Below, piece by piece: positions 7,900 through 32,000 of a DNA stretch of 32,000 bases. Position 1 is the stretch's first letter, and every line of letters starts with the position of its first letter. The notes under the pieces are model-generated. The model was not told the origin of the DNA. It was given only the letters and a program-made list of their open reading frames with translations, and searched no databases. Location of the stretch: assembly GCA_963663995.1 (NCBI GenBank), contig OY760660.1, positions 1,050,001 through 1,082,000 on the forward strand, written 5' to 3'. Origin of the DNA: Erysipelotrichaceae bacterium (GTDB lineage Bacteria; Bacillota_I; Bacilli_A; Erysipelotrichales; Erysipelotrichaceae). Made by a program: the position numbers and the translations under genes.

Positions 7900-9356
7900 T
7901 ACTTTTCCTCCATAAGAACTTCAATATAACGTTCTTCTCTTTCTTCTGTTCCAATTAAGAAACAACCTTTATCAACCGCATAAACAATGTAGTCGATAAT
8001 TTCTTTAGTAATTCTTTCACCAGGTGCCAAAATAGGAATACCTGGTGGATACAACATAACAAATTCGCCACAGATTTTATCTTGAGCTAAACGCATTGGG
8101 ATAAAATCTTGGTAAGCATAGAAAGCATCTTGTGGTGTCATCACGACATCAGGAGAGATGTATTCATGGTCTAACATACCAGTACTTTCTTTTTTATAAA
8201 TACGCTTAATATCAACTAAAGCTGAAACTAATCGTTCAATATTTTTTTGTGTATCTCCTAAAGAAATATAAGCAAGTGTATTACCAATATCTCCAAATTC
8301 AAGTTGTATATCATAATCATCACGCAGGATATCGTAAATTTCAATCCCGGCTAAACCTAAACCTAAAGTATTAATCGATAGTTTTGTTGGATCAAAATCA
8401 TAAATGGTGTCACCATTGACTAGTTCATGGGCAAAGGCGTAATAATCACCAATATCATTGATTTCTTCACGTGCATATTCAGCTAATTTTGCGACTTTCG
8501 CAAAGATTTTCTTTCCATCAAGTGCCAATTTCTTACGTGATATATCTAAACTAGATAAGAGTAAATATGAACCAGAGGTTGTTTGCGTTAAGTTAATGAT
8601 TTGACGAACATCATTCACATCTACATTCTCACCTAATAATAAGAATGAACTTTGGGTTAATGAACCCCCACTTTTATGCATACTGACACTACTCATATCA
8701 GCTCCAGCGGCCATCGCTGTCATTGGCATATCATCACCAAAATAGAAATGGGTTCCATGTGCTTCATCGACTAACATCTTCATACCATATTCATGGGCTA
8801 AATCAGTAATTGCTTTTAGGTTTGAACATATCCCATAATACGTTGGATTATTTATCAGCACCGCAACTGCATCAGGGTTATCTTTAATCGCTTTTTCAAC
8901 AGATGAGAGTTTCATCCCTAAAGGAATCCCTAGTTCTTTATTAATTTCAGGATTCACATAAATTGGTGTTGCCCCATTTAGTACTAAGGCATTAATAACT
9001 GAACGGTGCACATTACGAGGAAGTATAATCTTATCCCCTCTTTTACAAGAAGCAAGAATCATTGCTTGTACAGATGAAGTGGTTCCACCGACCATAAAGA
9101 AAACATGAGCTGCTCCAAATGCATCTGCAGCGAGTTCTTCAGCTTGTGAAATGATGGATGTTGGATGACAAAGATTATCCACAGGTTTCATGGAATTAAC
9201 ATCTAAGCTCATTGCTTGTGCCCCTAAGAATTCTGTTAATTCTTTATTTCCTACACCACGCTTATGTCCTGGCACATCAAACGGTACTAAACGAGAACGT
9301 TTAACCTGTTCGAGGGCTTCTTTAATCGGTGCTTTATTTTGATCTAATTTATACAT
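7899..9356 (-). CDS. speA: Arginine decarboxylase of the Orn/Lys/Arg decarboxylase (fold-type I PLP) family, Bacillus SpeA type
   Basis: Collinear by eye with B. subtilis SpeA (FDVPGHKRG..., PRNVHRS, VDEAHG, PLP-lysine motif SMHKSGGSLTQSS). I place the start at the ATG at 9356 because GGAG lies 8 nt upstream. The track's GTG start at 9440 runs through the leader terminator. Confidence 0.82.
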   Translation of the reverse strand: MYKLDQNKAPIKEALEQVKRSRLVPFDVPGHKRGVGNKELTEFLGAQAMSLDVNSMKPVDNLCHPTSIISQAEELAADAFGAAHVFFMVGGTTSSVQAMILASCKRGDKIILPRNVHRSVINALVLNGATPIYVNPEINKELGIPLGMKLSSVEKAIKDNPDAVAVLINNPTYYGICSNLKAITDLAHEYGMKMLVDEAHGTHFYFGDDMPMTAMAAGADMSSVSMHKSGGSLTQSSFLLLGENVDVNDVRQIINLTQTTSGSYLLLSSLDISRKKLALDGKKIFAKVAKLAEYAREEINDIGDYYAFAHELVNGDTIYDFDPTKLSINTLGLGLAGIEIYDILRDDYDIQLEFGDIGNTLAYISLGDTQKNIERLVSALVDIKRIYKKESTGMLDHEYISPDVVMTPQDAFYAYQDFIPMRLAQDKICGEFVMLYPPGIPILAPGERITKEIIDYIVYAVDKGCFLIGTEEREERYIEVLMEEK

Positions 9357-9374
9357 GACAATTTCTCCAGACAT

Positions 9375-9400
9375 TAAAAAACCAAGTATTACACTTGGTT
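9375..9400 (-). terminator. Leader (attenuator) terminator just upstream of the speA SD
   Basis: Minus strand: AACCAAGT-GTAAT-ACTTGGTT followed by TTTTT. It ends about 10 nt before the GGAG SD of speA. Confidence 0.7.
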
Positions 9401-9429
9401 TCAAAGAGTCGATTGGGTCACAACAATTA

Positions 9430-9448
9430 CTGTCCGACACGTATGGCT
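9430..9448 (-). repeat. Leader motif copy 2 (RNA sense AGCCAUAC-GUGU-CGGACAG)
   Basis: Same as copy 1 at 9571..9584 except for a 5-nt insertion (ACACG as read on the plus strand). It lies inside the helix-enclosed domain upstream of the terminator. Confidence 0.75.
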
Positions 9449-9507
9449 GAAGTTATGTTAGCTTCTACCACTCTTATTGATCTTTTCACAAGTGTATTTT
9501 AACTTAT

Positions 9508-9529
9508 AAAAATTGAGCTCTTAACTCAA
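9508..9529 (-). terminator. First hairpin + U-tract inside the leader (possible upstream attenuator)
   Basis: Minus strand: TTGAGTT-AAG-AGCTCAA (7 bp including one G-U) followed by TTTTTAT. Confidence 0.4.
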
Positions 9530-9570
9530 ACAATAAGGCAACAATGTTGCCGGTCCGGCTAACGACCTAG

Positions 9571-9584
9571 CTGTCCGTATGGCT
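9571..9584 (-). repeat. Leader motif copy 1 (RNA sense AGCCAUACGGACAG)
   Basis: Direct repeat of the motif at 9430..9448. It is followed by a perfect hairpin GGCAAC-ATT-GTTGCC (plus 9537..9551). Confidence 0.75.
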
Positions 9585-9627
9585 ACTCACAATTGATACT
9601 CATAAGTATGGTCGAATAACTAATTTT

Positions 9628-9644
9628 TGTGAATTTTGTTCACA
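9628..9644. promoter_or_regulatory. Palindrome TGTGAA-N5-TTCACA at the probable polyamine-operon promoter
   Basis: Perfect 6-bp arms. One arm (minus-strand TTCACA) doubles as a possible -35 located 17 nt upstream of CATACT (plus 9605..9610). Confidence 0.4.
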
Positions 9645-9732
9645 TCAAATAATAGTCGTGTCAATCATATATGACTTTGTACGCTTTTACAAGGACTCTC
9701 ACAAAAAACATGAAAAATAATCATGAAAATAC

Positions 9733-9754
9733 AAAAAAAAGAGGTTTCCCTCTT
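9733..9754 (-). terminator. Intrinsic terminator of the GH13 gene
   Basis: Minus strand: AAGAGG-GAAA-CCTCTT followed by a T run. The stem begins within the stop codon. Confidence 0.7.
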
Positions 9755-11439
9755 TATAAACTAATCCATTTATATTCAAACGCTTCAAGTTCAATCTTAT
9801 CCTTTAACATTACACTCTCACCATCAATAACTTGTTTCACTGATGATAGATTTTGTAAAACACAAACTTGATCATCTTGATAAGCTCTTCGATAAGCTAA
9901 GATATGTTTATTTACAGTTCCATCAGGTTTTTTTGCTTCAATAAATTCGAGTGTTCCTCTGGCGAATGCAGGATGTTGAGCTCTTAGTTTTGTCATCGCT
10001 TTTATTTCATTATAGATTTGTGAAGCAAGTGATTTAGGATCTTTTAAGTCTTCATCAATTGTCTTCCAATCCATCCGCCCACGACCTAAATAACGCGAAT
10101 CTTTATATCCACTTAACTTATACATTTCATCAAAATATTCATAATCATTTAATTTAGCAATTTCATCTCCATAATAAATGACTGGTGTACCAATTAATGT
10201 AAACATAATCGAATAAGCTAAACAAATTCGTTTAGGATCACGATCAAATAAATCCGCTAAACGAGCTGAGATACCTTCTCCTTGTCTAAAATCCCATGAA
10301 GCATCTTTTGCATAATAATTAAAGATATACTTACGCTCTTCAGGTGAAACCATTTCTAAGGTCAACTCATCATGACATCTTAGAAAACTAAACCACTGAC
10401 AAGCATCAGGTATTTCTGGGGTAACAGCTACAGACATAACCTTTTCAATAGCCGACCCATCCTCTTCTGCCATGGCTTTATATATTCTTGGCATAACTGG
10501 AAAATGATAAGCCGCATTACATTCAGCCCCTTCACCGAAATATTCAACAACTTGTTTAGGTGGTTGACATGCTTCTGCTAAAAGTAAATTATCTTCACTT
10601 AAATAATCCAATGTTGCTTTAAAGAATTGAACGATTAAATGTGTTTTAGGCAAGTTCTCACAAATGGTATTTTCTTCTTTCCAAAGATAAGGCACGGCGT
10701 CAGCTCTAAATCCATCCACCCCTTTGATTTTCCATCCAATCAACATATTTGTCATGGCAACTAATACATCAGGGTTTCGATAGTTTAAATCCGGTTGAAT
10801 ATCAAAGAAACGGTGGAAGAAATATTGTCCAGCCACTTCATCCCACTGCCAATTACTATCCATCATCCCTTTAAAGATAATTCGAGCATCTTTATATTTT
10901 TCTTGATCATCATTCCAAATGAAATAATCACGATACTTATTATCTTTTGAACTACGTGCTTCTAAAAACCAATGATGTTGATTGGAACAATGATTCATCG
11001 CCACATCAAATATTACTTTTATTCCTTTTTCATGAGCTGTATCTATAAATTCTTTAAAGACTTTATCTTTTACTTTTTTATCACTATCTTTGTCTAAGCC
11101 TAATAAATCAGGACGTATCGATTCGTAATCTGAAATATCAAAGCCAGCATCCTTCATGGGTGATTCAAGAATTGGTAATAACCATAAGCAGTTCACACCT
11201 AATTCTTGAAGATAATCAAGCTTAGCCTTTAAGCCATTAAAGTCTTTATTAAATAAATCAACATAAGCTGAATAAACGACTGCATCTTTATACCAATCAT
11301 TTTTCCCATTATTATTCTTTGAAAAATAATCACGTTTAATCTGTTCGACTTCTTCAATGAAAGCTTCAAGTTTATCATGTGCACCATGATCAATGAAATC
11401 ACCATAGATTTCATTCCATAATCTTTTTATATTTTGCAT
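9754..11439 (-). CDS. GH13 alpha-amylase-family enzyme (trehalose synthase / amylosucrase-like transglucosidase; specificity not resolved)
   Basis: The four GH13 conserved regions are visible: VIFDVAMNH, GFRADAVPYL, LLLAEA, FLRCHDE. No signal peptide is apparent. AGAGG SD. Confidence 0.8.
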   Translation of the reverse strand: MQNIKRLWNEIYGDFIDHGAHDKLEAFIEEVEQIKRDYFSKNNNGKNDWYKDAVVYSAYVDLFNKDFNGLKAKLDYLQELGVNCLWLLPILESPMKDAGFDISDYESIRPDLLGLDKDSDKKVKDKVFKEFIDTAHEKGIKVIFDVAMNHCSNQHHWFLEARSSKDNKYRDYFIWNDDQEKYKDARIIFKGMMDSNWQWDEVAGQYFFHRFFDIQPDLNYRNPDVLVAMTNMLIGWKIKGVDGFRADAVPYLWKEENTICENLPKTHLIVQFFKATLDYLSEDNLLLAEACQPPKQVVEYFGEGAECNAAYHFPVMPRIYKAMAEEDGSAIEKVMSVAVTPEIPDACQWFSFLRCHDELTLEMVSPEERKYIFNYYAKDASWDFRQGEGISARLADLFDRDPKRICLAYSIMFTLIGTPVIYYGDEIAKLNDYEYFDEMYKLSGYKDSRYLGRGRMDWKTIDEDLKDPKSLASQIYNEIKAMTKLRAQHPAFARGTLEFIEAKKPDGTVNKHILAYRRAYQDDQVCVLQNLSSVKQVIDGESVMLKDKIELEAFEYKWISL

Positions 11440-31424: not shown

Positions 31425-32000
31425 TTAATGTATAGTTTTTAAATCATTTTCAACAAATTTTATAAAGCTTTCAACACTTGGATTAAAAGTAAAATTCTTC
31501 TTATAAGCAAAAACATGTCGACTCACTCGTTCAGGTTTTAAAGGAACAAACTTTAAACCGTCAACTGGTCTCATACTAAATGCACCTTCAATGGTAAAAG
31601 GATAAGCTATATCTTTTTTAACTAATAATAATGAATTTGATAATAGATTGTGTTGAACTTTTAAATTAATATCTTTGATATCTTTCTTTAACCATTGGGC
31701 AATTTCATTTAAGACAATTGAACGATTGGTTCCAATCAAAGGTAAATTAATAATATCAATCTCATCGACTTCACCTTTAATCGATAACGGATGTTCAACA
31801 GGTAAAATAACACCCCATCTTTCTTCAATGAGTAAAGGGGAACTATGATATTTTGCAACTTCAATCGGTTCCAATAAAAACCCACAATCTATAATATTTT
31901 GATCAATTTTTTCTTTAATACCATCACCATTCCCAGTAAAGATTTCAAATCTCACATTTGGGTTATCTACTGAAAACTGTTCAATTAAACTGGCGACATA
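31425..32000 (-). CDS. LysR-family transcriptional regulator (copy 2), N-terminus beyond the window
   Basis: The C-terminal substrate-binding domain aligns by eye with copy 1 (RPVDGLKFVPLKPER vs RPVDGLSFVPFKPEK). The frame stays open from 31955 to position 32000, so the track's GTG start is internal. Confidence 0.8.
   Translation of the reverse strand, partial: YVASLIEQFSVDNPNVRFEIFTGNGDGIKEKIDQNIIDCGFLLEPIEVAKYHSSPLLIEERWGVILPVEHPLSIKGEVDEIDIINLPLIGTNRSIVLNEIAQWLKKDIKDINLKVQHNLLSNSLLLVKKDIAYPFTIEGAFSMRPVDGLKFVPLKPERVSRHVFAYKKNFTFNPSVESFIKFVENDLKTIH

Follow-up and report, generated by a model that had tools for sequence, protein, structure and literature searches.

A probable divergent member of the ldcC RNA family, with a terminator and a candidate antiterminator, precedes a polyamine operon in an Erysipelotrichaceae bacterium

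Polyamines are made by nearly all cells. Here we study the RNA leader of a polyamine operon on the minus strand of a 32,000-nucleotide (nt) stretch of DNA from an Erysipelotrichaceae bacterium (contig OY760660.1, positions 1,050,001 to 1,082,000); the whole stretch is called the window below. The leader is very probably a divergent member of the known orphan ldcC family (RF02440), and very probably it has an architecture in which a conserved fold and a terminator stand against an antiterminator. The genes downstream suggest that it could be an OFF riboswitch that senses a polyamine directly; here we infer binding, ligand identity and direction, and we regard the chances of this part as close to evenly balanced. 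For the whole explanation, i.e. ldcC membership, terminator/antiterminator switch and polyamine OFF switch taken together, our grading is a compromise: it is somewhat favoured.

Leader coordinates refer to the minus strand throughout and were recomputed from the sequence. In the original prediction, made by a model from the DNA letters, the region was described as a structured cis-acting leader of the polyamine operon that ends in an intrinsic terminator, and this description stands. It was also called unclassified, and this has to be revised, as the leader is homologous to RF02440-type leaders over about 125 nt.

A divergent ldcC leader

The ldcC motif was described by Weinberg et al. (2017, PMC5737381) as widespread in Firmicutes, located in the 5' untranslated regions (UTRs) of arginine, ornithine and S-adenosylmethionine (SAM) decarboxylase genes and of potA, and shaped as a hairpin with a bulge and a possible invariant pseudoknot; no ligand was reported there. 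In the searchable literature we find no later work on ldcC, SpF59 or RF02440.

At gathering thresholds Rfam has no match in the whole 32-kb window. A permissive E-value search of 9300-9800 (501 nt) gives one credible match: RF02440, named "SpF59_sRNA (ldcC RNA)", aligns with 9614-9555 (minus) at 32.6 bits (E = 3.8e-4, full model), below its gathering threshold of 37.2 bits. The original prediction had proposed an Rfam search and named assignment to a known family as evidence against its claim; a family is indeed found, below threshold, so this objection holds in part. The closest relatives of the window score equally low (32.6 bits for locus L122 and 33.3 bits for L127), while eight canonical loci reach 48-77 bits. 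In the same 501-nt region no SAM-family riboswitch is found at E up to 10, and neither the window nor any of 13 related loci matches the T-box model.

The defining parts of the motif are present in the window. P1 (GACC/GGUC) encloses the P2 hairpin, the core GCCAUACGGACAGC is found exactly at 9583-9570, and GCCG, a possible pseudoknot partner, trails it at 9559-9556; the columns of GCCAUACGGACAGC and GCCG are invariant in 33 sequences. As with the published motif, a terminator follows, the genome is of the Bacillota type, and the RNA occupies the 5' UTR of an Arg/Orn/Lys decarboxylase gene; the polyamine genes that come after it are speA-like-speE-speB-CANSDH-nspC. Unlike the published motif, the window has a long P2, and its P2b takes the form AGC/GCU. 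Further, the published motif and the Rfam model comprise 54 nt, whereas the conserved RNA here runs about 180 nt further, and in this extension the window lacks P5 and P6 but contains a 60-nt insertion in P7.

Conservation beyond the Rfam model

The family was described from a set of about 37 homologous leaders belonging to Bacilli, Clostridia and Negativicutes. Wherever a canonical leader is complete, the conservation continues for about 180 nt past the 54-nt model of Rfam, and in eight canonical loci no other Rfam family matches the conserved part downstream of the RF02440 core. A profile hidden Markov model (HMM) built from 30 canonical leaders, i.e. without the window and its two closest relatives, matches 9559-9467 with E = 1.1e-15, and a full-length profile HMM matches 9583-9460 with E = 7.6e-25. 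It is from the profile search that the homology of about 125 nt is taken. In nearly all loci collected the core and the 3' domain are found together. Judged by this conservation, the conserved RNA of the family measures about 200 nt, roughly four times the length of the Rfam model. Neither the longer RNA, nor the coupling between terminator and Pb described below, nor a 3' domain without the core was found in Rfam 15 or the searchable literature.

The fold was obtained with RNAalifold, and a manually specified structure was counted on the alignment of 33 leaders. The pairing holds in 94.9% of the cells, compared with 29-46% when the partners are slid by 1-3 columns. Changes on both sides are seen for 16 pairs; the slid controls have 4-8 such pairs, and in 500 shuffles the observed values are never attained. 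Compensatory changes support P1, P2b, P3, P4, P5 and the inner part of P7. As read from the aligned sequences, the fold is composed of a 5' domain (P1-P2-P2b, then P3) and a 3' domain (a Pa-P4-Pb junction, then P7). In the window its elements are:

9644-9628, minus: P0, a tentative 5' hairpin UGUGAA/UUCACA, from minimum free energy (MFE) folds
9614-9555, minus: the ldcC core, the part modelled in Rfam (RF02440)
9614-9610 with 9567-9563, minus: P1, CGACC/GGUCG; its closing pair is UA in 13 leaders, GC in 13, CG in 3 and AU in 1
9608-9600 with 9592-9584, minus: P2, a variable hairpin that covaries
9584-9569, minus: P2b, AGC/GCU around the invariant loop CAUACGGACA, covarying
9559-9556, minus: the invariant GCCG
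9551-9537, minus: P3, the hairpin GGCAAC-AUU-GUUGCC, with double-sided changes in all six pairs
9536-9531 with 9479-9474, minus: Pa, UUAUUG/CAAUAA, invariant in 33 sequences
9529-9513, minus: P4, the hairpin UUGAGUU-AAG-AGCUCAA, with three compensatory pairs
9512-9483, minus: Pb, UUUUUAUAAGU/ACUUGUGAAAA, 11 bp with an 8-nt loop, from the MFE fold and the profile alignment
9474-9470 with 9409-9405, minus: the outer helix of P7, AGAGU/ACUCU, family-wide with G-C to G-U changes

In the family P2b has the form GGC/GCC; its outer pair is GC in 29 leaders and AU in 4, and the window has the compensatory A-U form. Pa is a long-range helix, UUAUUGA/UCAAUAA in its family form, that closes the junction with P4 and Pb. 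The family form of Pb is UUUUAUAAGU/ACUUGUGAAA, with near-invariant columns, and it encloses P5 and P6. Of these two, P5 covaries and P6 is a variable hairpin of the canonical leaders that was kept outside the scoring. P4 is absent in L043, L053 and L131, and the U-rich strand after it is retained there. The inner stem of P7 covaries in the family alignment. The 284-nt leader of the window folds with z = -3.96, and none of 200 shuffles folds as well.

At the place of P0 canonical leaders have a covarying hairpin, UUGGAAAG/CUUUCCAA as against UUUGAAAGAC/GUCUUUUCAAA (by eye). An alternative upstream helix, AGAGUC/GACUCU, was dropped, as AGAGUCUUUUC is the 3' strand of the covarying P0.

Several elements of the original prediction recur in this fold: AAGAGU (9475-9470) and ACUCUU (9409-9404), GAAG and CUUC (9465-9462 and 9452-9449), GGCAAC-AUU-GUUGCC (9551-9537) and UUGAGUU-AAG-AGCUCAA-UUUUU (9529-9508) are all located where it had placed them. 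The extension of the AAGAGU/ACUCUU helix by UCA/UGA that it had also proposed does not hold up, since UGA is replaced by UAA or AAA in relatives and UCA belongs to the conserved Pa. Its upper bound of 9600 is too short: the 5' strand of P1 lies at 9614-9610, and a promoter-like site is found at 9692-9664.

Coupling of terminator and fold

An intrinsic terminator lies directly before the Shine-Dalgarno sequence of the speA-like gene, as had been predicted, and an equivalent terminator is present in relatives. Its 5' arm is complementary to the 3' strand of Pb:

9400-9375, minus: intrinsic terminator AACCAAGU-GUAAU-ACUUGGUU plus U-tract, from the sequence and the MFE fold
9496-9489, minus: 5' strand of the antiterminator, UACACUUG, overlapping the 3' strand of Pb
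9397-9390, minus: 3' strand of the antiterminator, CAAGUGUA, in the 5' arm of the terminator

The 3' strand of Pb can pair in the folded domain or in the antiterminator but not in both, so the two states are mutually exclusive. The same arrangement is known from classical OFF riboswitches, such as the SAM-I and lysine riboswitches, where one strand of an aptamer helix, the 3' one, also serves as antiterminator. A difference lies in the distance: with P7 and a variable spacer enclosed, the antiterminator of canonical ldcC leaders would reach across 130-200 nt.

The pairing was compared across 34 leaders by scanning the 17 nt that end in CUUGUGA for the best duplex within the 330 nt downstream of P7. 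In the window UACACUUG/CAAGUGUA is the best duplex (-10.1 kcal/mol, RNAduplex). In 31 of the 34 leaders the ACUUGUG segment pairs best with the terminator that precedes the gene, on its 5' arm; the exceptions are L016, L043 and L053. The original prediction had suggested pairing of ACACUUG (9495-9489) with CAAGUGU in the terminator as an antiterminator, and the comparison bears this out.

Across the leaders, the terminator arm and the variable bases on the 5' side of ACUUG change together, as seen from these pairs:

Bacilli: CAUCAACUUGUG with GCAAGUGAUG
Clostridia: GCGCAGACUUGUG with CGCAAGUCUGC
L045: CUUGUAA with UUUACAAG
L127: AAUACACUUG with CAAGUGUAU

On average the segments pair better with their own terminators than with those of other leaders (-14.6 vs -11.8 kcal/mol, permutation p about 5e-5), and the variable flanks alone behave likewise (-7.2 vs -5.3, permutation p about 5e-5); both p-values are inflated by shared ancestry and should be read as supporting evidence, not as a probability.

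A consensus scan for terminators had proposed P3 with UUAUUGUUUG, which is an internal conserved hairpin instead. The same scan did not list the true terminator at 9400-9375; one possible cause is that the stem extends into the U-run.

Gene context and the candidate signal

The first gene downstream of the leader is one of four kinds:

speA-like decarboxylase: 16 of 34 loci
S-adenosylmethionine (AdoMet) decarboxylase, speD: 8 of 34 loci
carboxynorspermidine synthase: 8 of 34 loci
potA: 2 of 34 loci

This context agrees with that reported by Weinberg et al. (2017, PMC5737381). The downstream genes have a common product, spermidine and related polyamines, and not a common precursor. Therefore the likeliest signal is a polyamine, either spermidine or a close relative.

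A possible mechanism follows the logic of an end-product switch. A polyamine would stabilise the folded domain and keep Pb closed; with Pb closed the terminator would form, and transcription would stop before speA. If Pb opens, ACUUGUG and a few bases 5' of it could pair with the 5' arm of the terminator, which would permit read-through into the operon. A change of UACACUUG to UAGUGUUG would be expected to break both Pb and the antiterminator.

A related but bolder reading, which we consider possible though rather doubtful, is that the 54-nt ldcC motif makes up only the first quarter, at the 5' end, of an aptamer with two domains and a length of about 200 nt, and that this aptamer represents a second, widespread class of polyamine (spermidine) OFF riboswitches in Bacillota. 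If so, ldcC might have stayed an orphan because the models contained only a truncated core.

A single polyamine riboswitch has been validated, a spermidine-binding variant of SAM-I; it is an OFF terminator switch that is rare, with 13 representatives (Salvail et al. 2023, PMC10853860). The original prediction knew of no validated polyamine riboswitch in Bacillota, which this report, describing a different fold, has made outdated. Both systems occur in Bacillota, precede the same kinds of genes (ldcC/speA-type decarboxylase, speE, speB) and use a terminator/antiterminator platform, and end-product OFF logic is what would be expected for the ldcC leader as well. The folds are unrelated, as the four-stem architecture of SAM-I is not recognised in the ldcC leader, and the latter is widespread, here in three classes. 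Moreover, spermidine binding has been demonstrated for the SAM-I variant, whereas for the ldcC leader it is inferred. The speF and odc1 leader motifs of Alphaproteobacteria (PMC8632094) are likewise orphan structured leaders of polyamine decarboxylase genes, but they belong to another phylum and have no sequence or Rfam similarity to the ldcC leader; the odc1 motif involves an upstream open reading frame (PMC8632094).

The ldcC motif, far more widespread in Bacillota than the SAM-I variant, has been without ligand or mechanism since 2017. With the full extent of the RNA described, full-length constructs as well as mutants of Pb and of the antiterminator can now be defined, which makes the question of the ligand directly approachable. 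Annotation based on Rfam misses divergent members such as that of the window.

Alternative explanations

A number of observations weigh against the explanation given above, taken as a whole. For no ldcC RNA is a ligand found in the searchable literature, the RF02440 threshold is not reached by the window, the preference for own terminators is partly a matter of ancestry, and Pa and Pb, the helices on which the switch would depend, have pair-preserving one-sided changes only and thus offer no compensatory proof. In addition, the MFE fold of the window with Pb and terminator has -71.1 kcal/mol and the fold with a forced antiterminator -62.7 kcal/mol; without ligand the terminator state is 8.4 kcal/mol more stable. 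Given this gap, read-through may, according to the folding model, need kinetic help or a factor. Such a factor is at the centre of an unlikely alternative, in which an RNA-binding protein or another macromolecule (e.g. a tRNA) binds at the conserved single-stranded and junction sequences and chooses between Pb with terminator and the antiterminator, so that the factor, not the RNA, senses the polyamine. The preference for the terminator state and the lack of a reported ligand since 2017 fit this well, and so does the very high primary-sequence conservation across three classes of Bacillota, with Pa and Pb nearly invariant, as conservation of this kind is also typical of leaders bound by proteins or ribosomes. 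However, the loci examined have no candidate regulator gene as a constant neighbour, neither a T-box nor any other protein-binding leader family matches in Rfam, and metabolite aptamers typically have such a multi-junction fold with invariant loops. Control by a leader peptide is unlikely, given that there is no conserved AUG and that stop triplets occur in all three frames of the conserved segments (by eye).

The energies could also be taken to indicate a switch of opposite direction. The leader would then be folded by default, and Pb would be opened, in favour of the antiterminator, by a signal that polyamines are needed or by arginine, agmatine or another precursor. That Pb of the window is a local 11-bp hairpin, which forms first, argues for such an ON switch, as does the greater stability of the terminator state. 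The regulated genes speak otherwise: they comprise two alternative routes to spermidine and the importer potA, which share a product but no precursor, and the SAM-I variant, alone among polyamine riboswitches in being validated, works as an OFF switch (PMC10853860). We therefore consider an ON switch improbable. Still less probable is a small RNA (sRNA) that acts in trans, as the Rfam name "SpF59 sRNA" implies. RF02440 is of the Rfam type Gene; sRNA, and premature termination would release a short stable RNA; on the other hand, all 37 of 37 leaders lie in sense orientation directly upstream of a polyamine gene, and the terminator is constrained to pair with the leader, both of which point to a regulator in cis.

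The slightest probability of all is given to the tandem arrangement of the original prediction, i.e. two aptamers, each with a AGCCAUAC...GGACAG motif and a terminator of its own. The repeat itself is real: AGCCAUAC-GUGUC-GGACAG is present at 9448-9430 and a further copy, AGCCAUACGGACAG, at 9584-9571, the two-part motif occurs twice in the window vs never in 100 shuffles, and a hairpin with a U-run lies downstream of each copy. In this the window superficially resembles tandem riboswitches such as the glycine riboswitch. The two copies are not equivalent, however. The copy at 9584-9571 is invariant in 33 of 33 aligned leaders and forms a small stem with an invariant 10-nt loop, while the copy at 9448-9430 has decayed to UACCAUAC in L122 and UACCACGC in L127 and is not a loop, as it provides the 3' strand of P7a (AGCCAU) and the 5' strand of P7b (GUCGGACA). 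The whole supposed second domain is an insertion absent from canonical leaders. The supposed upstream terminator is P4 followed by the 5' strand of Pb, both within one conserved domain, and some leaders keep the U-rich strand but have no P4. A single copy in the window is found by Rfam as well as by the profile HMMs. The RNA has one domain, not two. The repeated motif may be a relic of an internal duplication.

A rearranged variant

The leader of the window and its lineage represents a rearranged form of the conserved RNA. Pb is a simple 11-bp hairpin in which P5 and P6 are replaced by the 8-nt loop. At the position of P7, canonical leaders have a hairpin of about 26 nt, and in the lineage of the window a 60-nt insertion has expanded it into a three-way junction, which the terminator of the window adjoins directly. 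Two hairpins are enclosed by the outer helix:

9471-9462 with 9452-9443, minus: P7a, from RNAalifold on the window, L122 and L127
9438-9431 with 9425-9417, minus: P7b, from the same three sequences

P7a consists of GUGGUAGAAG/CUUCAGCCAU, and the changes among the three sequences keep its pairing; in P7b GUCGGACA pairs with UGUU-G-UGAC. The three-way junction of the original prediction is thus retained in its outline, an outer helix around two hairpins, but the GUCG/CGAC hairpin proposed for it is not: CGAC (9411-9408) overlaps ACUCUU by 2 nt, and GUCGGACA is paired elsewhere by RNAalifold.

By amino acid identity of the decarboxylase the nearest relatives are L127 (93%) and L122-124 (89%), all on metagenomic contigs. 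Variants of the window type were sought in metagenomes with a gapped pattern (second motif inside P7) and with an exact 23-mer, and none was found. As both scans were empty, the lineage is represented by three distinct sequences.

Another leader without P5 and P6 (AUAAGUUGUUUUUAAUACACGCACUUGUG) is found at L130:1-115, where the short canonical P7 is kept. Since L130 shows the loss of P5/P6 without the expansion of P7, the two events are separable. At L108:4800-4908, from an uncultured Oscillospiraceae, there is an independent large insertion in P7 with UGUCC-UUAAA-GGACAGUAUAAUUG, which resembles GGACAGUAAUUG of the window; either shared origin or convergence of the two inserts is possible.

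Promoter and operon

Upstream of the leader a putative sigma-70-type promoter was located by a consensus scan, and its hexamers are identical in the relative L122. Judged from its position, transcription would start near 9657. The features of this region are:

9692-9664, minus: putative sigma-70-type promoter, TTGTAA-17 nt-TATGAT
about 9657 to 9357, minus: the leader, predicted extent
9368-9365, minus: Shine-Dalgarno sequence GGAG, read from the sequence
9356-9354, minus: ATG start codon of the speA-like gene, from the sequence and alignment to homologues
9356-3876, minus: the regulated operon of five genes, identified with Pfam and NCBIfam scans, as are the genes below
9356-7899, minus: Orn/Lys/Arg decarboxylase (speA-like)
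7899-7057, minus: spermidine synthase (speE)
7057-6203, minus: agmatinase (speB)
6190-4991, minus: carboxynorspermidine synthase (CANSDH)
5039-3876, minus: carboxynorspermidine decarboxylase (nspC)

A mechanical list of open reading frames (ORFs) starts the speA-like gene with the GTG at 9440, so that the frame runs through the terminator; alignment to homologues places the start at the ATG at 9356 instead. The gene upstream of the leader (9754-11439, 561 amino acids (aa)) has a counterpart in L122 that belongs to the alpha-amylase family. The upstream gene ends with its own terminator, AAAGAGGGAAACCUCUUU plus a U-tract at 9738-9755, and accordingly the leader should have its own promoter.

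Relatives and unusual loci

One genome per species was scanned for GCCATACGGACAGC, which gave at least 120 loci, 32 of them true leaders; among the matches listed about 88 are chance or coding matches. Many of the matches outside Bacillota read EGHTDS...N..LS..RA in coding sequence, which looks like the signature of the OmpA C-terminal domain (L012, L020, L027, L030, L033, L049, L070, L087, L089, L091, L092, L112 and others). It is because coding sequence of the EGHTDS type matches GCCATACGGACAGC that the 14-mer scan is swamped by false matches. Among the matches listed, the leader is present in the Bacilli Priestia, Paenibacillus, Brevibacillus, Neobacillus, Weizmannia and Alkalihalobacillus, in the Clostridia Ruminococcus, Blautia, Subdoligranulum, Butyricicoccus and Agathobaculum as well as metagenome-assembled genomes of Lachnospiraceae and Oscillospiraceae, and in Acidaminococcus of the Negativicutes. 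A scan of viral contigs yielded one example, of the canonical kind.

Further loci came from a protein search with the decarboxylase of the window, for which an exact match was sought in the assembly index without success. Among named organisms the nearest homologues, at about 72% identity, are those of L129 (Thomasclavelia spiroformis), L130 and L131 (Clostridium aminobutyricum). The top protein matches P0001, P0004 and P0007 were rejected as close relatives, being about 68% identical and carrying internal partial duplications. At the corresponding loci (L121, L125 and L126) the speA-like genes encode 607-687 aa, and tblastn aligns them in two overlapping segments, which shows internal partial duplications of the decarboxylase domain; these may be assembly artefacts or real.

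Two loci depart from the common co-occurrence of core and 3' domain. At L131:1230-1356, upstream of speA in Clostridium aminobutyricum, Pb, P5, P6, the 3' strand of Pa, P7 and the terminator are present, and the RF02440 match, P3 and P4 are missing, with a short unrelated hairpin instead; the 3' domain may thus be a self-sufficient module. The converse is seen at L120:4330-4700 (Ruminococcaceae RUG12748), which keeps the core, P3, P4 and P5 without the ACUUGUGAAA...CAAUAAGAGU...GACUCU part, and where a GCAAGUUGUG-type terminator still precedes the speA-like gene.

Some minor observations were made during the survey. An otherwise canonical leader at L125:1755-1790 has a 15-nt tandem duplication, GUGAAACGGUCAAU GUGAAACGGUCAAU, in the region of the 3' strands of Pb and Pa. 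In the window the profile of the 3' domain weakly matches 31522-31557 with its P5 part (E = 0.011); the match lies inside the ORF 31425-31955 (minus) and is taken as noise. At L036:4024-4133 (Blautia glucerasea) a glycine riboswitch (53 bits) is located on the strand opposite to the ldcC leader, at a distance of about 300 nt.

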